From the IMG/VR virus record IMGVR_UViG_2541047882_000002, positions 1 to 11,987 of that record: a DNA stretch of 11,987 nucleotides; one strand, written 5' to 3'. The translations under genes were made by a program, and so were the position numbers. The notes below the pieces were generated by a model. That model was not told where the DNA came from. It did not search any database and worked only from the letters and a program-made list of their open reading frames with translations. Shown here piece after piece: positions 2,005 to 11,987 of the stretch (positions are counted from its first letter, which is position 1; every line of letters starts with the position of its first letter). This stretch comes from a virus (Duplodnaviria; Heunggongvirae; Uroviricota; Caudoviricetes).

Positions 2005-2329
2005 CCGGTGGGGGGTGCGCAAAGCGGTTACAACGGTTACAACCCCAAAAAACGCCACATAACAATATGATTTTAATGGATATTGTTTGTAACCGCTTTG
2101 CGGTTACACTGCGGTTACAACGGTTACAGGTTTCAGAAAGTTATTTATTATCAATCAGTTAAAAACTTAACTTGTAACCGCCTGTAACCTAACAAAACGG
2201 TTACATGTAACCGCGTTGTAACCGCTTTTGTAACTCATCGGACCAGTTGTAATGTGTTGATATATAATATAAAAATAAGTGATTTTAAATTTGTAACCGT
2301 TGTAACCGCTTTGCGCACCCCCCCCCCGG
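2005..2329. repeat. Array of at least 13 GTAACC/GGTTAC hexamers bounded by near-perfect ~38 bp inverted repeats, with an AT-rich segment; candidate attP-like site or replication origin
   Basis: IR-L 2005-2044 (CCGGTGGGGGGTGCGCAAAGCGGTTACAACGGTTACAACC) is the reverse complement of IR-R 2291-2329 except in the G/C run. Further GGTTAC at 2102, 2113, 2122, 2199 and GTAACC at 2089, 2174, 2184, 2207, 2218. AT-rich stretch 2236-2292. Confidence 0.8.
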
Positions 2330-2581: not shown

Positions 2582-3586
2582 TTACTCTGCTGGCTCTTTT
2601 TCTTCGGTGATCACTATGTTGGCTACCGGGTTAAATCTCATAGCATCTGCCAGATAATCCGGTGCAAAATGTGCGTATGCCATAGTCTGCTGAATTGTCG
2701 CATGCCCAAGGATTTTTTGTAGCGCAAGAATGTTGCCACCGTTCATCACAAAGTGACTGGCGAATGTATGCCGCAATACATGCGCAGCCTGCCCCCTCGG
2801 TAAATCGGGTTTTATTTTTTTTAATGCCCGGCAAAACTCTCTGTACTTCACATCAAACAGTCGCCCGGTTTCTTTTGTTTTTACGGCAGCACATATTTCC
2901 TGCGACACAGGCACCGTTCTTTTTCTACCGTTTTTGGTTTCCAGAAACGTTATTCTATTATGAACTATTTGCTCTCCATACAATCTGCTGGCCTCACTCC
3001 AGCGGGCTCCGGTACAAAGACACAAGAGCGCAACCCTTCGTTGATCTCCATTCAGTCTGTCAAGCAACAATGTGACCTCGTTTTTTGATAAAAAGGCCAT
3101 CTCCCGCTGCTTTACGTAAAGAACAGGAATACCGCGAACAGGATGTTCTGCATCCCACAAACCGATCTTTTTCAGGGCTGTAAACATCCCTGATAATCTG
3201 TTCATATATCTGTTTGCTGAGGACGGCTTTAGCCCTTCCGCAATTTTCTGTGATCGCCATGCAATGATTTTTAATTTGTCGAGCTCTACCGCAAACATGT
3301 CAGCCCCAAGCTCATTAATAATTTTGCCAAGCTGCTGTTTATCCGTATTTGCCTTCCGCCTGTGCTGGCCGTGATAGACCCACCACAATTCCAGTAAATC
3401 GCTAAGCGTTCTCCGGTCGCGATAGCCCTGTATAAACTCGCGCTTTTCGGCGTTCGCTATGATGTACCGTTCAGTTGCTGCAGCTATCGATTTTTTGTCA
3501 AATATTCTTCTGATGCGCTTCCCTTTACGTCCGCATGGCCTGATATCGAGCAGCCACCGCCCATCATGCATCTTTCTGATCGGCAT
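2582..3586 (-). CDS. int: Tyrosine recombinase, P2/186-type phage integrase family, ~334 aa
   Basis: Start refined to ATG at 3586 (MPIRKMHDGRWLLDIRP...) with AAGGAGGGG 8 nt upstream. Contains HVLRHTFAS and LGHATIQQTMAYAHF (catalytic Tyr) and LCLCTGARWSEA. Block-wise resemblance to P2 Int as recalled (DIRPxGRxGKRIRRxFDKK, IKPSSxNR, KAIKPDLPxGQA). Track ORF begins 12 codons earlier at 3622. Confidence 0.85.
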   Translation of the reverse strand: MPIRKMHDGRWLLDIRPCGRKGKRIRRIFDKKSIAAATERYIIANAEKREFIQGYRDRRTLSDLLELWWVYHGQHRRKANTDKQQLGKIINELGADMFAVELDKLKIIAWRSQKIAEGLKPSSANRYMNRLSGMFTALKKIGLWDAEHPVRGIPVLYVKQREMAFLSKNEVTLLLDRLNGDQRRVALLCLCTGARWSEASRLYGEQIVHNRITFLETKNGRKRTVPVSQEICAAVKTKETGRLFDVKYREFCRALKKIKPDLPRGQAAHVLRHTFASHFVMNGGNILALQKILGHATIQQTMAYAHFAPDYLADAMRFNPVANIVITEEKEPAE

Positions 3587-3588
3587 GT

Positions 3589-6258
3589 TTAACGCCCCTC
3601 CTTGTAACTGAATATCCGGCATTTCAGTACTTCCGGCTCTCTGGCCTCGGCGACCCCTCTTCCGGCGTTTGCCTGTCTGGAGACCTCACTACGAATGGTT
3701 TTGCGGCCTGTCAAAGGTCGGGAACGTCCGGCTCCGAGCAACTCAATCATTTCGCGGTCAGTTCGGATCTCCACGCGGTGAATGGCGGCTGCCTGTGCCA
3801 GTTGCGGAATACTGATAGCAATCCCTTCGCGGCATCCCTTGCCGTAGTGGTTTACGCCGTATTTTGTTATGCCGTCCAGGAAGTCGAACGCCTCCCAGAA
3901 CTCCATCATTTCCGGCAAGTCAGCCGCCGCCGCTTTAACCTGTGCTGTTGCCATTTGTTCCAGTTCCAGACATGTGGCATCAAGCCATTCAGCCGGGATA
4001 TCAATAACGCATTTAAGCGCCCTGACCAGCGCGATAAGTTGCGCGTGATTTTTGGCGATACGGGGATGGCGAATATTTTCGCATCCGCAAAGGCGTTCCG
4101 TTTCAGCTGGCGACACTTCCAGGAACGTTTGCATAATCGCCCGTTCCTGACTTACCGCCCGGTGAATAAACCCCGATACCTTCTCTACGGGGTAGAGTTC
4201 CAGCCGTCTCGCCGCCAGTCGGGTATCTGGTGAATGGCGTTTTTTATCGGTGTATATGCGTATCAGGCGCTCAATAATTGCTGGCGAGGCGTTTACCCGC
4301 GCATTCTGCGCAATTACGATAGCGCCCTTAAAATCCGGGTCATAAGTGTTGTTATTGTTGGCCTTAACACCTCGAACGCCGATACCACCGCCGTTATAGA
4401 GGCTTTTCAGGTTATCGAAGTCAAACGCACCTCTTTTTTGCGCATTGTCTCCCCGGTCTGCTTCAATCAGAACAACAGGTAATCCGGCGACCTGTCCAAA
4501 GGTGCGCTTCCAGCCCGCTTCTGATCCTTTGGTTGGATCAACGCCTTCGTAGTTGTCACGACCGCACAGCCGCCAGCAAAAATCAATCAATGTTGATTTG
4601 CCCGTTCCGGGCTCTCCGGTGACTTCAAGGAAAGGGAAGGATTCTTCTTTATCCCGGATTTGTTCACTGAACAGTGACCCAAGCCAGAAAGCCAGGGTAA
4701 TAACTCCTTTTTCACCAAAAGCCAGCCAGAGATCTTCCACCCATGACGCTGTAAATTCATCCGGTTTTTTGTAGTTAATCTGTAATGTGGGTTTTTCGCT
4801 TAATGGTTTTGCGGTTATGCCATCAATTTCAAAATAATCTTCGTCATTGATTTCATAAGTTTTACCCTTGTAAACAGCAATATCATTAAACAACCACGCC
4901 CCAATGGCCTTGTTGTATCCGATAAAATCCTGACCAATAACCTCTTTTATTGCGGGAAGGTCATTTTTTATTAATGCGTCAAGCTGCGTAGTCGTTCCGG
5001 TATAAATGCCGCCTTTTGCTACGTGCAACAGACGTTTTTTAAATTCAGATGAGGATGTTAATTGTCCTGATGTAAAGGTGTTTTTTACCGTAGTGCCATC
5101 CGGGAACGTAACACGGAAGTAATACCATGCTTCATCCGTGTCATTGTTTCGAATGTAATAAAGCGGCACCGGGTTACAGTTTGCGATTTCTTTTACTGCA
5201 CCGGATTCCTTAAGTGCAATTTTTCGCGCTTCATCTTCGTCAACATTTCGCTCATTAATGACACGCTCAACAGCCTTCATATGGCGCTCAATATCCAGCT
5301 TGAACCAGAAAATACGGTTATCAAAGGGAAAATGAAACTCCTTTCGCTCACGAAAGGAAAACATTATTAGTGCCTTATCTCTCGGAGATTTCGCCAGCAA
5401 TAAATCACCGTAATAACGGTATCTTTTCACATCATGGCCACGCAGCTTTCCGGCGATGTGTAAATCATTCCAGTCGCGTTTATTGTTGTTTTTACCTGGC
5501 AACGCCGCTGCCGTTCTCCAGCCGTCTTCGGCGCTGCGTTCTGCATGTTTTTTCGCGTAACGCTCACCTGCACGCCCGTTATCCAGCGCCCACACGATAA
5601 CCGGACGGGGATTATCCCCGCACAGCTTCGCCAGTTCTTCCAGCGCCTTATCAGGGTAGTTCACGGCAGACATGACAGAAACGGCCGCAATGCCATTCTG
5701 GTTAAGGCTGATGGCATCAAAGATACCCTCACAAATCCAGATTTCTTTGGCCTTGCTTAAATCCGCTCCCGGATAAGCCCACCACAGCCCCTTGTAGCTG
5801 CCGGAAAAATTCGCCTTCCGTTCGAAGCGTTCCGGTCGGTCTATGATGCGCTCCCACCACACGCCGTCAGCCAGCGTAAAACGCACAGTAGCAGCCTGTT
5901 CGCCGCTTTCCTTGTCCTGGTATCGCTCCTGAGTAAATGCCCCTTTCAGTGGCTCCACAGCAATATTGCGCGCCTCCTGAAGATAAGCTGCCGCCGCTGC
6001 GTATGGATCGTCTTTCGTGCTGATATAGCGATCTGACCATGACGAAAACACATCCGGGTAAAGTTCTTTGGTCAACAGGTCTGCACCGCATTTATTTTCG
6101 CGGCCACAGTGTACGATGTACGGCCTCTCAAGACTGGTAAACAGTTCCTTCTTTCCACATTGCGGACAAACACCATAGCGAAGATAGTTATTTTCTTCTT
6201 TAAAGTTGTAATCACGAATAAGACGGTTAATAATCTCTTTTCTGGTGTTATGTTTCAT
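3589..6258 (-). CDS. Primase-helicase replication protein (P4 alpha-like), ~889 aa
   Basis: N-terminal Cys cluster (CPQCG...HCGRENKC), TOPRIM-like WICEGIFDAISL, central Walker A GEPGTGKST. Track ORF starts at GTG 6276; ATG at 6258 (MKHNTRKEII) is the more likely start. Stop lies 2 nt before the integrase ATG. Confidence 0.85.
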   Translation of the reverse strand: MKHNTRKEIINRLIRDYNFKEENNYLRYGVCPQCGKKELFTSLERPYIVHCGRENKCGADLLTKELYPDVFSSWSDRYISTKDDPYAAAAAYLQEARNIAVEPLKGAFTQERYQDKESGEQAATVRFTLADGVWWERIIDRPERFERKANFSGSYKGLWWAYPGADLSKAKEIWICEGIFDAISLNQNGIAAVSVMSAVNYPDKALEELAKLCGDNPRPVIVWALDNGRAGERYAKKHAERSAEDGWRTAAALPGKNNNKRDWNDLHIAGKLRGHDVKRYRYYGDLLLAKSPRDKALIMFSFRERKEFHFPFDNRIFWFKLDIERHMKAVERVINERNVDEDEARKIALKESGAVKEIANCNPVPLYYIRNNDTDEAWYYFRVTFPDGTTVKNTFTSGQLTSSSEFKKRLLHVAKGGIYTGTTTQLDALIKNDLPAIKEVIGQDFIGYNKAIGAWLFNDIAVYKGKTYEINDEDYFEIDGITAKPLSEKPTLQINYKKPDEFTASWVEDLWLAFGEKGVITLAFWLGSLFSEQIRDKEESFPFLEVTGEPGTGKSTLIDFCWRLCGRDNYEGVDPTKGSEAGWKRTFGQVAGLPVVLIEADRGDNAQKRGAFDFDNLKSLYNGGGIGVRGVKANNNNTYDPDFKGAIVIAQNARVNASPAIIERLIRIYTDKKRHSPDTRLAARRLELYPVEKVSGFIHRAVSQERAIMQTFLEVSPAETERLCGCENIRHPRIAKNHAQLIALVRALKCVIDIPAEWLDATCLELEQMATAQVKAAAADLPEMMEFWEAFDFLDGITKYGVNHYGKGCREGIAISIPQLAQAAAIHRVEIRTDREMIELLGAGRSRPLTGRKTIRSEVSRQANAGRGVAEAREPEVLKCRIFSYKEGR

Positions 6259-7435: not shown

Positions 7436-7830
7436 TTTGGCGGCTCCTTTGGTTAATTTACGGAGTCTCGCCAGCACGCTGCTAAACATGGTGGCGGGAC
7501 GTAACAGGGTTAGCAGACTGGCACCAAAGAAACCAGCAGGCCTTACGGCCTCCCCATTACGCCCCGCCATAATACGGGAAAGGGTGGTATTACGGGCACA
7601 AAAAAACCGCATTACGGAAATATAGCGGCTACCCGCTTTGGTATTCAGGCTGCTAAACCCGGCACCCGTTTTGTGAGGTGCGGGCAAACGATACGCCATG
7701 ACAAAAAAGCGAGTCAAGCAATATTGCAAATTATTTTTGCGCGATTGCGCTGAGTGATTGATTTCTGTACGTAAAAAGATCATAATCATTCCCGAACTGT
7801 AGATTCATAGCGTTTTCTTTTGCTGATAAG
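7436..7830 (-). promoter_or_regulatory. Leader/regulatory region of the small-gene and primase operon, carrying repeated (C)ATTACGG(A) motifs
   Basis: Motif copies at 7457 (TTTACGGA), 7556 (CATTACGCC), 7589 (ATTACGG), 7610 (CATTACGGA); the same 9-mer recurs at 7869 and 10155. Promoter elements not confidently placed. Confidence 0.3.
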
Positions 7831-7870: not shown

Positions 7871-8923
7871 TTACGGATTAAACGTAATCACCCCTTCATC
7901 CACCGCCGCATAAAGATTAACATCCGCCAGTCCATAGCCCTGATGACGCCATGCTCGCATGTTCAGGCGTTTGGTGTTTTCGTTCATGTCGAACTCTGTG
8001 CGGTAAGACCCTTCAATGATGTTAATCAGCAGGTTCGGGAGTGTGGTCACAGCCAGACGTTTACCCGGCATAAACGGCGGCACAAAGGCAAAATGCCCGG
8101 CAATGGTGCTTCCCCATGCGCTGGCGGCTTCGGTATCTCCTGCGCCGTTTGCGGTGCTGAAAAGACGCAGACGTTCGGCAGCTGCAAGTTCTGATCCCAC
8201 CATCACCACAAGGCGTGGATCGTTCTGCCACTGTGCGGGAATTTTCGTTTTAATCAGGTGCTGTGCCAGTGCATCCACCCCCGGAAAATCACCACCTGCG
8301 CCCAGCGTGATGGCCTCGCTGATAATCTGTCGCCCTTCGCTGGCCTTCCTGGCAATTTCATGCCAGCCGGGCGCAACATCCTCGCCGTTCGGGCTGGTGT
8401 CCGGTGTGGTGAAGGTTGCCGCTGACTTGCCGTTAAAGCCAATCCGCAGATCATCCAAGTAAATTTTGCTGGTCAGATAGCCACACAAAATCCCCAGCAG
8501 TGCATCGCGGTTTTTATCGTCATTCGCCACATTGGCCATCACAACCAGGTTAATCCAGTCGAGATATTCGCATGAGTCCATCTCATAGCATTCAATCGGA
8601 GAGCCTTTAATATCCATGGCTCGGCTAAAGCGTCCTTCCTCTGCGCGTCCGGTGGATAAGCGCGCATCACCAATCAGATTAATGGCGGACTGATGCGGAT
8701 TAACTGACAGGTATTTTATTTGCCCGGAGAGCCAGTTAGAGGGTGAAATAAAATGCACAAACGGATTTTTTTGTGTGTATGCGCTGATGCGTGCGTAAAG
8801 CTCTTTTTCTGCAAGCGCGCTATTAATGTCAGTTTCATTTTCGTTCACCGCCGGAGATGAAATATTAATATTTTCAAGCACGCTTCCGGCTTTATCTTTC
8901 AGGTCATTAATATTAAAAAACAT
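7871..8923 (-). CDS. Hypothetical protein, ~350 aa, second gene of the cargo operon; no recognisable domain
   Basis: ATG at 8923 (MFFNINDLKDK...) preceded by AAGGGGAAA; the upstream gene's TAA stop is 10 nt before it. Track ORF starts at 8995 but that would overlap the upstream gene by 62 nt. No Walker A or obvious catalytic signature. Confidence 0.7.
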   Translation of the reverse strand: MFFNINDLKDKAGSVLENINISSPAVNENETDINSALAEKELYARISAYTQKNPFVHFISPSNWLSGQIKYLSVNPHQSAINLIGDARLSTGRAEEGRFSRAMDIKGSPIECYEMDSCEYLDWINLVVMANVANDDKNRDALLGILCGYLTSKIYLDDLRIGFNGKSAATFTTPDTSPNGEDVAPGWHEIARKASEGRQIISEAITLGAGGDFPGVDALAQHLIKTKIPAQWQNDPRLVVMVGSELAAAERLRLFSTANGAGDTEAASAWGSTIAGHFAFVPPFMPGKRLAVTTLPNLLINIIEGSYRTEFDMNENTKRLNMRAWRHQGYGLADVNLYAAVDEGVITFNP

Positions 8924-8933
8924 ACATTTCCCC

Positions 8934-9809
8934 TTAAACAATATCTTTCTTTTCGGTATGTGCAGACAGCAAAGCAGTCGCTGCATCCCGTTCAATTCGT
9001 GGCATACTTATTCCGGTGTATTCCTGTAGCGTCATCGCATGGCGGATGGTTTCACTGCCGTTGCTGTAATAATGCTTCGTCAGAGTACGTAGTGCATCAT
9101 TAATATATTCCTGCCGTAAATGGTTGTATTTAGTCATTACTGAATAAGGAATGTGCTTAATTTCTTCATTACGCAAAGTGACAATAGCACTGACTGCCGA
9201 AATAATCCCCTTATAAAGACTGATGCGGCGCTCTATTTCCCGCTCCAGTCCGTCAAACGAAGCGGCAAAAATCCACGCATTATCGCTATCATGAGAAAGA
9301 TTTTTCCCTGTACCAATAAGGCGTATAGCTTGTTCACAGGCAGCGCGCGTCTTTTCGCAATTCCGTTTCTCATTTTCAAGCAGACGCATTTCATGCTCGA
9401 TAACGTCTTTTACTGAATACCGATCACCATAAGGGTTATCAGCACCCGTGGGCTGTAACGGAGCGTTACGCAATTCGCTGATTTTATTTTCCTGAGCAGT
9501 CACTTTATTTTCTGCTTCGCGGATTTTTTGCCGGATGCGTGTAATGGCAATATCGCAACCTTCCGCAATATCCCGCATCTCTTCATCACTGATTTTATGC
9601 ACTAACGGCAGGCAATACCCTGTAATATCGCAATATTCCTCGGCGTGTCTGTGCATGTATTTTGATGCAATGATATCAATCAGACGAATAACCAAAGAGA
9701 CTTCAGATTGTCCCTTTTGATATACAAAACTACGGGGCCACGATGCAATCGTGGTCATTTCCGGGCAGTTTTTAAAAACCGGAGTAATGTTTTTGATTAA
9801 GGTATTCAT
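8934..9809 (-). CDS. Hypothetical protein, 291 aa, first gene of the cargo operon; no recognisable domain
   Basis: ORF from ATG 9809 with only a weak purine-rich RBS. Charged, probably coiled-coil-rich central region (ENKVTAQENKISELRN..., EHEMRLLENEKRNCEKTRAACEQ). AT-rich: three 60-nt samples gave 47, 32 and 48 percent GC. Confidence 0.7.
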   Translation of the reverse strand: MNTLIKNITPVFKNCPEMTTIASWPRSFVYQKGQSEVSLVIRLIDIIASKYMHRHAEEYCDITGYCLPLVHKISDEEMRDIAEGCDIAITRIRQKIREAENKVTAQENKISELRNAPLQPTGADNPYGDRYSVKDVIEHEMRLLENEKRNCEKTRAACEQAIRLIGTGKNLSHDSDNAWIFAASFDGLEREIERRISLYKGIISAVSAIVTLRNEEIKHIPYSVMTKYNHLRQEYINDALRTLTKHYYSNGSETIRHAMTLQEYTGISMPRIERDAATALLSAHTEKKDIV

Positions 9810-9883: not shown

Positions 9884-10105
9884 TTAAGCCTGAAAACGTT
9901 GTTGTTTTCTTTCTTCTAACCAATCAATAATTTCCTGCTCTACCCATGCAATTGAGCGAGGGCCAATTCTGATTGGTTTTGGAAAGGCTTCTGATCTTAT
10001 ATCTGCGTAAATTCGCGTTCTTGATTTTCCCGTCATTTCAATAACTTTAGGAAATCGTATTAGCTTTTGTGTCGGCCTGCTGCTGGAATGTGCATGTATT
10101 GACAT
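9884..10105 (-). CDS. alpA: AlpA-family (prophage CP4-57 type) HTH transcriptional regulator, 73 aa
   Basis: ATG at 10105 with AGGAGGG 5 nt upstream. Core LIRFPKVIEMTGKSRTRIYADIRSEAFPKPIRIGPRSIAWVEQEIIDWL matches the AlpA/Vis-type helix-turn-helix as recalled. Confidence 0.85.
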   Translation of the reverse strand: MSIHAHSSSRPTQKLIRFPKVIEMTGKSRTRIYADIRSEAFPKPIRIGPRSIAWVEQEIIDWLEERKQQRFQA

Positions 10106-10634: not shown

Positions 10635-10668
10635 AAAAAAATCGGCGTGTCCACATATTGTCCACGCC
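10635..10668 (-). terminator. Putative intrinsic terminator downstream of the P4-type integrase
   Basis: Minus-strand RNA: stem GGCGUG / CACGCC (10663-10668 / 10644-10649), 13 nt loop, then GAUUUUUUU (plus-strand A-run 10635-10641). The loop holds a GTCCAC(A) direct repeat. Confidence 0.45.
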
Positions 10669-10724
10669 TTGAGTTTAATTCAGTTTCTTGGGTTAGTTTG
10701 GTTTGTCGAGTTAGCGCCGTTAGT

Positions 10725-11987
10725 TCAGTCTGTTTCGTTGATCCACTTAAAATCATAGGGCGCGACATATGCCGTCTGGCAGGAGTCGAGATAATCAGCC
10801 CACCACTGCAACATCTGGCGACGCTCCTGCATGTGTTCAGCCCTGTGAATGTAAGCAGCACGAACGGTGTTTCTTTCCCTGTGGCTCATCTGGAGCTCGA
10901 CAGCTTCCCTTGTCCATATGCCTGATTCTGTCAGAGCGGAGCAGGCCATAGCCCTGAATCCATGACCGCAAATGTCTTCTTTTGTATCGTATCCTATGTG
11001 GCGTAACGCCTTGTTAATGGTGTTTTCGCTCATGGGCTTTATCTGGTAGTGGTCGCCGGGAAAAATCAACAATTCATCACCTGATATATTCCTTATATCT
11101 TCAAGAAGCTGCATTGCCTGAGTGGATAAAGGGATGGCGTGAGGGGTTCCCATTTTCGTTCCACGATATGAATATTTAACGCCTTCTATTTTTTCGCGCT
11201 CTGCGGGTATTACCCACATTGATTTATCAAAATCAATTTCATTCCATCGGGCAAAACGCAATTCACTTGAGCGAATAAAGACTAATAAATTTAACTTTAG
11301 CGCAAATTGCGTTAATAGCCGCCCGTTCATCTTGTGATGATAATTATCAATTTTTCCCAGCAATTCAGGCAATCGCTCAAGAGGGAGGGCAGGGCGATGA
11401 CGGGTTTTATTGGTTTCTATCGCACCGCCCAACTCCTGCGCTGGGTTGTATTTAATCATTCCGTTCTGGACAGCGTAACGCATGATTGCATTCATTCGCT
11501 GCTTGTTTCGTGATGCCGTCTCAAGTATCCCTTTATCCTCCATTTTGCGTAGAGGTAACAACAGATCCATGGTTGTAATTTCGTTAATTGGCCTTTTGCC
11601 AAGAATGGGGAAGACATGATTCTCCAGGTCTTTTAAAACTTTTTGTGCGTGTAGTTCGCTCCAGCCCTTTTTCCTGCGATGCCATTCTCTGGCGACATCT
11701 TCAAAAAGCACTATTTGGGGTTTTTGTGTGTACAGGGGATCAATGCCTTTAGCCAGACTTGCCAGATATTCATCGCGGGCGTTCCTGGCTTCTGCAAGCG
11801 TGACGGCCGGGTAAATACCCAAAGCGCGAGTTGTTTCTTTGCCGTTGATAACTTTGCGAAAGCGCCAGTATTTTGAGCCATTGGGGTGAACGTAGAGATA
11901 CAGGCCTTTACCGTCACGAAGTTTTTTAATTTTGTTGCTGTCTTTGTCTGGTCTGGCGTTACGCACAGCTAAATCAGTTAGTTTCAT
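10725..11987 (-). CDS. int: P4-type (CP4-57 IntA-like) tyrosine integrase, 420 aa
   Basis: N-terminus MKLTDLAVRNARPDKDSNKIKKLRDGKGLYLYVHPNGSKYWRFR is the typical P4-family arm-binding start; C-terminal HGFRAMACSALTE and LQMSHRERNTVRAAYIHRAEHMQERRQMLQ (catalytic Tyr). Start codon is at the window's last bases. Confidence 0.9.
   Translation of the reverse strand: MKLTDLAVRNARPDKDSNKIKKLRDGKGLYLYVHPNGSKYWRFRKVINGKETTRALGIYPAVTLAEARNARDEYLASLAKGIDPLYTQKPQIVLFEDVAREWHRRKKGWSELHAQKVLKDLENHVFPILGKRPINEITTMDLLLPLRKMEDKGILETASRNKQRMNAIMRYAVQNGMIKYNPAQELGGAIETNKTRHRPALPLERLPELLGKIDNYHHKMNGRLLTQFALKLNLLVFIRSSELRFARWNEIDFDKSMWVIPAEREKIEGVKYSYRGTKMGTPHAIPLSTQAMQLLEDIRNISGDELLIFPGDHYQIKPMSENTINKALRHIGYDTKEDICGHGFRAMACSALTESGIWTREAVELQMSHRERNTVRAAYIHRAEHMQERRQMLQWWADYLDSCQTAYVAPYDFKWINETD

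Follow-up and report, generated by a model that had tools for sequence, protein, structure and literature searches.

What does a dense, symmetrical block of one short repeat do between a P2-type integrase gene and an ogr-like gene? This question is raised by positions 2005-2329 of the window, i.e., the whole 11,987-bp stretch of DNA analysed here, for which a sequence-only reading had offered three answers: arm-type sites of the neighbouring integrase, iterons of an origin for the adjacent primase-helicase, or an invertible segment. Judging from its sequence and from that of its relatives, the block very probably serves a P4-like satellite as its replication origin or, failing that, as its principal cis-acting array of iterons. 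The main new points are a rule that links one residue of the primase-helicase to one base of the repeat, and an orphan helper-type integrase beside the putative origin.

The repeat block and its genomic setting

The window covers nearly all of a chromosomal island of ~13 kb, which in E. coli 52F4 is located between hpt and gcd. On the minus strand it encodes a P4-type integrase (10725-11987), AlpA (9884-10105), a homologue of the P2-family capsid protein (7871-8995; Pfam E 5e-43), the C4 antisense RNA and isrK RNA (7487-7574 and 7600-7681; Rfam 79.9 and 53.2 bits), a primase-helicase of 889 aa (3589-6258), a P2-type integrase (2582-3586) whose 3' end lies 250 bp from the block, and, starting 140 bp beyond the block, an ogr-like gene of the Ogr/Delta type (1607-1861). 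Because of this gene set, the island is a P4-like satellite in its regulation and helper type. The position of the block had been likened to the int-attP-ogr arrangement of P2; the likeness holds for gene order and fails for orientation, since the integrase, the block and the ogr-like gene all run one way, on the minus strand. Rfam gave no match inside the block, no tRNA was found, and the P2/P4 cohesive-end sequence is absent from the window at up to 3 mismatches.

Two further features of the island deserve mention. The C4 and isrK matches overlap an ORF annotated as Icd-like, a region which resembles the RNA immunity region of P4-type elements. The satellite also encodes its P2-family major capsid homologue (7871-8995) without a Sid or Psu gene, and this capsid-like protein of its own may serve the satellite to assemble capsids or to change their size.

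The hexamer GGTTAC/GTAACC occurs 15 times in the window, with 13 of these copies at 2026-2307. None of 200 shuffles reached 15 copies (shuffle mean 3.8), and base composition predicts about 0.14-0.15 copies in 325 bp, which bears out the original observation of at least 13 copies in both orientations within ~325 bp against a chance expectation well under one. The true repeat unit is longer than the hexamer, an octamer present as CGGTTACA in 12 copies and as AGGTTACA in one, and a degenerate 14th iteron, TGTAACTC, is found at 2229-2236. Within clusters the iterons are found in both orientations, 8-15 bp apart from start to start, mostly 9-11.

The iterons form four groups, i.e., two tandem outer pairs, which close the block at its two ends and face each other, and two inner clusters (2088-2128 and 2173-2236), and these are separated by three AT-rich spacers (70-78% AT) where a single AT-rich stretch had been described. 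The left outer arm (2010-2042) opens with a G run (2010-2015), followed by a pair of CGGTTACA copies on the plus strand (2025-2032 and 2034-2041). After a spacer of 70% AT (2044-2087), whose position is kept in 19 arrays, inner cluster A (2088-2128) carries CGGTTACA at 2088-2095 (minus), 2101-2108, 2112-2119 and 2121-2128 (all plus), copies that are in register with those of diverged arrays when aligned. The central spacer (2129-2172; 77% AT) includes an IHF-consensus match, TATCAATCAGTTA, at 2149-2161. Inner cluster B (2173-2236) comprises copies at 2173-2180 (minus), 2183-2190 (minus, the AGGTTACA variant), 2198-2205 (plus), 2206-2213 (minus) and 2217-2224 (minus), together with the degenerate iteron, also on the minus strand. 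The last spacer (2237-2291; about 78% AT) holds a second IHF-consensus match (2250-2262, minus) and leads into the right outer arm (2291-2327), with an iteron pair on the minus strand (2292-2299 and 2301-2308) and a C run at 2318-2327. The IHF consensus WATCAANNNNTTR has only these two matches in the window, both in block spacers, and the central spacer is the likeliest site of bending or strand opening, where IHF would bind.

The bounding inverted repeats, with their G- and C-run ends, are stronger than first described: the perfect stretch is 33 bp (2010-2042 against 2291-2323), not 27 bp, and with mismatches it reaches about 60 bp. The single-strand fold of the block is very stable (z -11.9) because of this dyad symmetry, and as such it does not discriminate between any of the readings. 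Just outside the left arm, ~50 bp at 1940-1988 repeat the spacer just inside the right arm (2244-2288) as direct repeats of 18 nt and 11 nt, which suggests a partial duplication at the edge of the origin.

Long terminal inverted repeats beside a tyrosine recombinase are what an invertible segment flipped by that recombinase would look like, and this was the third answer proposed for the block. The comparison of related genomes gave a different picture: in E. coli, each of the 62-66 copies aligns collinearly with the window in one piece that includes its flanks, and none is inverted. The order of the repeats is asymmetric and has a single orientation relative to the primase gene in 19 arrays from many genera; this fixed orientation, together with the collinearity in 62-66 genomes, excludes inversion, a reading to which we attach next to no probability. 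Moreover, no gene and no convincing promoter lies inside the segment to change with its orientation, and the same structure is also found without the recombinase. RefSeq annotation under the block is empty in the 62-66 E. coli genomes.

Arrays beside primase homologues

The distribution of the repeats was surveyed in 80 genome loci with primase homologues and in 13 more obtained via ten exact-protein look-ups, with an array defined as at least 9 copies of T[TC]ACA per 350 bp (background 1-2). About 30 loci contain exactly one strong array (9-15 copies), beside primase homologues of 50-100% identity. These loci include both satellites and P2-like phages, share a common architecture of ~300 bp, and carry the array with or without integrase, Ogr or capsid genes nearby. 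In primase orientation, 19 arrays follow a common plan, i.e., outer pair, spacer, inner cluster, central spacer, inner cluster, spacer and outer pair, and 11 of the 19 related arrays have an IHF-consensus match at the central position. Among GGTTACA-type arrays of five genera the iteron columns are 85% conserved and the other columns 66%.

Most arrays also have a boundary motif outside the outermost iterons, a G run followed by 3-6 bases and CGGAAA or GCAAA, examples of which are found at 2010-2024 and 2309-2327 of the window, at L010:9825-9840 and at L013:10465-10480. The form with a G run, a few bases, CGGAAA and then two iterons was found in L005, L007, L009, L010, L013, L018 and L073. The motif stays constant while the iteron word changes, and the iteron-origin model leaves it without a role, which counts against that model.

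The neighbour of the arrays is the primase-helicase, which consists of an N-terminal zinc-finger-like motif, a Toprim domain, a Walker-A helicase core and a C-terminal domain, matches Toprim_2/Toprim_3/DUF5906 in Pfam, and matches phrog_1139 (DNA primase) over its full length. Among primases of P2-like phages, that of ESSI2_ev239 shares 51% identity with it, and those of Ralstonia and Pseudomonas phages share 41-45%. It aligns with P4 alpha at the Walker-A and Toprim motifs only (E 2e-4 and 0.004), and no P4 record was listed by tblastn against phages at E<=1e-5. A sequence search against solved structures returned only a chance match to a P-loop.

If the repeats were arm-type sites of the adjacent P2-type integrase, the block would be an attP-like recombination site, and several observations point in that direction. 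A catalytically intact integrase of this type adjoins the block in the window and in L001-L005, L009, L060, L089, L092, L095 and L101; in the window its gene starts 3 bp past the primase stop codon and its product matches the P2 integrase structure 5c6k (E 8e-80) with the catalytic residues conserved. The attP sites of P2, ESSI2_ev239 and P88_4B11 likewise lie next to a P2-type integrase gene and have, on each of two arms, 7-8-mers in tandem at a spacing of about 11 bp, with an IHF site in between. In different lineages the integrase gene was inserted on one or the other side of the array, e.g., E. coli Eco_24-2013 (L005) has the order primase-array-integrase, unlike the primase-integrase-array of the window. 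A natural comparison for this locus is Salmonella L093, whose primase is 97% identical over residues 1-800; relative to L093, the integrase of L005 is a 1.05-kb cassette in place of 455 bp between array and ogr.

Against arm sites stands first that arrays occur where no P2-type integrase was found in the fetched flanks, namely in Pectobacterium/Samsonia (L010-L012 and L075), Enterobacter (L013), Salmonella (L091 and L093/94) and L096, where the repeats of L091 and L093/94 are identical GGTTACA arrays and those of L096 read ATCACA. At these integrase-less loci the array begins about 150-850 bp past the primase stop. Similarly, the P2-like prophages L018, L097 and L098 have the integrase at the prophage end beside host genes, 5-6 kb from an array that lies downstream of the primase. 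In phage ESSI2_ev239 both elements are present, the array at L007:530-830 being separate from an attP with TGTGGAC pairs that abuts int (L007:2230-2470), with a gene between them.

The integrases themselves point the same way. Those of P2, ESSI2_ev239 and P88_4B11 (46%, 52% and 82% identical to that of the window) all use GTGGACA-type arm repeats, in 4-6 copies against 14 iterons in the block, and a repeat of this type is absent from the block. The attP of P88_4B11 has TGTCCAC-N4-TGTCCAC pairs on both arms, and the annotated integrase sites of P2 have the same word, TGTGGACA. With P88_4B11 the integrase of the window shares about 78% identity in its N-terminal domain. Conversely, the six integrases found beside GGTTACA arrays (window, L002, L005, L089, L092 and L101) are only about 50% identical to one another, with N-terminal domains at 38-52%, and those of satellites with about 90% identical primases are only 51-59% identical to that of the window and to one another. 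A P2-type attP also requires a core shared with the bacterial site, for which the block has no evident candidate, and integration splits it into two. The block, by contrast, remains whole and internal in every integrated (chromosomal) copy and is therefore not the crossover site. Arm-type sites thus did not survive the comparison, given integrase-less arrays, the GTGGACA arms of relatives and a block that is never split, and we regard this reading as very unlikely.

The reading of the repeats as iterons of an origin for the adjacent primase-helicase is, by comparison, supported by a block that follows the primase gene in about 30 loci and that covaries with a primase residue (see below). A counterpoint to this layout is that the window has the integrase gene between primase and array, unlike the classic position immediately downstream. 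No array was found within the fetched flanks of the ESSI2-like prophages L014-L017, L019 and L036, or in those of L099/L100. These loci are uninformative rather than contrary; the array of ESSI2_ev239 lies beyond attP and so would, in a prophage, be at the far end.

Two individual loci stand apart. The Providencia P2-like prophage L098 has two adjacent iteron arrays downstream of the primase, at 10700-11520 and about 800 bp in total. The Enterobacter kobei contigs L099/L100 hold a P2-like phage with a phrog_1139-type primase and ParM/StbA-type partition genes, with no integrase in the fetched 14 kb, and this phage may be a phage-plasmid.

Repeat word and primase residue

The repeat word differs by lineage (GGTTACA, GGTCACA, CGTTACA, CATTACA, CCTTACA, CATCACA and CCTTACC), and a change of word hits all copies of an array at once. 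TCACA, for instance, replaces TTACA in every copy in L004, L095, L096, L097 and L007, the iterons of ESSI2_ev239 being CATCACA/CGTCACA. Such concerted change is expected if one specific protein binds the repeats. The case of L004 is instructive, as its primase is 91% identical to that of the window, yet its iteron is GGTCACA.

When primases of GGTTACA loci were aligned against those of L004 and ESSI2_ev239, the difference was located in the last 12 residues, where the tails read EPEVLKCRIF in the window, EPDTLKCWIF in L004 and MPDTFRCWIF in ESSI2. Three residues ahead of the conserved C-terminal Cys, the five TCACA loci among 20 from Enterobacterales all encode Thr, and the fifteen TTACA loci all encode Val, Ile, Gln or Arg. 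In the window this residue is Val877 (codon 3628-3630, minus strand), three residues before Cys880. In a structure model of residues 690-889 (pLDDT 94), comprising a helical bundle and then a small alpha/beta domain, Val877 is the first residue of the last beta strand of the C-terminal domain. It is plausible that Val or Ile packs against the thymine methyl while Thr accommodates cytosine.

The rule was set after two cases, the tail position was then listed in 120 database homologues, and five proteins were picked by this residue alone as a blind test on new loci. All five fitted: Thr in P0024 (L095) with GTCACA in 12 copies, in P0028 (L096) with ATCACA in 11 copies and in P0035 (L097) with GTCACA in 12 copies, Val in P0036 (L098) with GTTACA, and Arg in P0014 (L101) with GGTTAC in 10 copies. 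Over residues 1-800, the nearest relative of every Thr/TCACA primase is a Val/TTACA primase (73-93% identity for four Thr primases and 60% for ESSI2), which therefore implies about five independent switches. Further afield, L027 fits the rule, with Thr and AGGTGA (complement of TCACCT), and L080 from Thiothrix (35% identity) breaks it, with Thr and CCTTACC.

Other products of the neighbourhood do not follow the switch. The N-terminal domains of the integrases do not track the change between TTACA and TCACA, and that of L004 is nearer to the window's than L002's is, though L002 has the iteron of the window. Whole-protein identities of primase and integrase in the window, L002 and L004 had not alone separated the readings; the residue-level analysis with more loci did so. 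The 250-bp flank at 2330-2581 is highly conserved between the window and L004 by eye.

The same comparison bears on the ogr-like gene, whose regulatory region, or whose activator's target, the block could in principle be. The distance from the block to the start of this gene is 140 bp, and many loci have an Ogr/Delta gene near the array. However, although their iterons differ, the window and L004 have Ogr proteins with no more than two residue differences, and one of the two L004 shares with L002, the locus with the iteron of the window. The target of Ogr/Delta proteins in P2 late promoters is a TGT-N12-ACA dyad, and this dyad is absent from the block. A promoter and terminator scan around the block stayed at chance level, and no Ogr gene was detected near the arrays of L091 and L010-L013. 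A role in ogr regulation is thus extremely improbable.

A candidate origin and a neighbouring integrase

The block and its surroundings combine the features of an iteron origin, namely a repeat array, AT-rich spacers between opposed repeats, linkage to an initiator gene, and covariation of repeat and initiator. On the model of P4 alpha and of the Rep proteins of SaPIs (staphylococcal phage-inducible islands), the primase-helicase would bind the ~14 copies of (C)GGTTACA through its C-terminal domain, with residue 877 reading the fourth base of GGTTACA. Given the inward orientation of the iterons at either end, initiator molecules would gather on each half of the block. Bending and opening of the DNA would follow in the AT-rich spacers, of which the central one has an IHF-like site. 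The primase-helicase would then self-load as a helicase and synthesise primers through its Toprim domain, allowing the host polymerase to copy the excised circle, presumably in both directions.

The array might instead be read by the primase-helicase while synthesis starts elsewhere, as a crr-like enhancer or an element of copy-number control or incompatibility. P4 itself depends on two sites, ori and crr, of which crr is the one downstream of alpha, and the window has a single array, so that the block could be one of two elements, the other lying unrecognised or outside the window. Nevertheless, neither the window nor complete elements such as L001 contain a second iteron cluster, and the parts of a complete origin are all present in the block, with inward-pointing iterons and AT-rich spacers. 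SaPI and PICI origins likewise consist of a single such block, in which an AT-rich region downstream of pri-rep has iterons on either side, two or more per side and in opposite directions (PMC9371898, PMC6092414), and in the PICIs of E. coli two iteron sets surround an AT-rich region, with a pri-rep-ori segment that drives replication (PMC6092414). We consider an accessory element of this sort unlikely, and a complete origin remains our preferred reading.

The block most likely works like P4 ori/crr or the SaPI/PICI origins. With the P4 system it shares octamer iterons (in P4, TGTTCACC) about 9-11 bp apart in both orientations, and a single reader protein with zinc-finger, Toprim primase, helicase and C-terminal origin-binding parts, the binding here being presumed. 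The crr iterons of P4 lie just downstream of the alpha gene. The elements that carry the two systems are also alike: both are satellites of P2-type phages and encode a P4-type integrase, AlpA, an Ogr/Delta protein and an antisense RNA of the C4/CI type. However, the primase belongs to another family (phrog_1139), with only the Walker-A and Toprim motifs in common with the PF03288-type alpha, and the iteron is CGGTTACA rather than TGTTCACC. Since enzyme family and repeat word differ, the block is not of the P4 system by descent. It is also one inverted-repeat-bounded unit without the 120-bp direct repeats of P4, whose two sites are 4.5 kb apart.

The SaPI and PICI systems, with Rep or Pri-Rep proteins as self-loading helicases, are alike in having the origin downstream of the initiator gene. 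They differ in that a sequence relationship is undetectable, that they have one spacer and two iteron groups where the block has three AT-rich spacers and four groups, and that the block has a conserved G-run/CGGAAA boundary. The phrog_1139 family, moreover, serves true P2-like phages and not only satellites. More distant parallels are found in plasmids. Theta-plasmid origins such as those of pSC101 and R6K have initiator-binding repeat arrays beside an AT-rich region and an IHF site (review PMC4980987). The block similarly places its array next to AT-rich DNA with an IHF-consensus match. Unlike these plasmids, whose small Rep initiators recruit host DnaB and DnaG, the initiator here itself has helicase and primase domains, and no DnaA box was seen.

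A literature search for the origin of P2-like primases, or for the repeat word with 'iteron', gave no relevant earlier description. Most likely this is a familiar kind of origin, for an enzyme family (phrog_1139) in which no earlier description was found. The reading would assign an origin to a widespread family of primase-helicases that replicates P2-like phages and a group of P4-like satellites. The rule of one residue to one base (Val/Ile with T, Thr with C) provides a handle on how such initiators read DNA, and may bear on how satellites and phages which share the enzyme family keep their replicons separate. For annotation, the block should not be labelled as an attachment site or a switch.

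This leaves the integrase as a separate puzzle, together with a GTGGACA pair elsewhere in the window. With its counterparts in true P2-like phages (P88_4B11, Chuche, PhiR44_2 and Shae_phiSM) the integrase shares 82% identity, the satellite copy is without the C-terminal tail of the phage proteins, i.e., the part overlapping the P' arm, and no cognate attP was found near it. The canonical pair GTGGACAatatGTGGACA (GTGGACA-N4-GTGGACA), a word that also weighs against arm sites in the block, is situated at 10649-10665 (minus), 60 bp past the stop of the P4-type integrase, inside a hairpin followed by a T run. By chance, the whole window would hold about 0.02 pairs of this kind. The interpretation of the pair as a terminator hairpin was dropped, since the motif recurs at the same place in unrelated flanking DNA in L089/90 (L089:730) and L093/94 (L093:375). 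The satellites with the pair include some without a P2-type integrase, and the pair may be a docking site for the integrase of the helper phage.

A possible explanation, to which we give a rather low probability, is that the P2-type integrase is an orphan helper-phage integrase in the replication operon of the satellite, acting in trans on the attachment sites of the helper or on the pair at 10649-10665. If so, satellite replication would be tied to the manipulation of excision or integration of the helper, or of the satellite itself, and the closeness of the integrase to the putative origin would be no accident.

On the other side of the block, the content of the stretch beyond the ogr-like gene (1-1600 in the window) varies between relatives (L003, L005, L093 and L095). 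In relatives it holds Hok/Gef (annotated in L001, L002, L004 and L089), MazEF, YoeB/YefM or HicAB modules, and has the look of a hotspot for cargo of the toxin-antitoxin or defence type.
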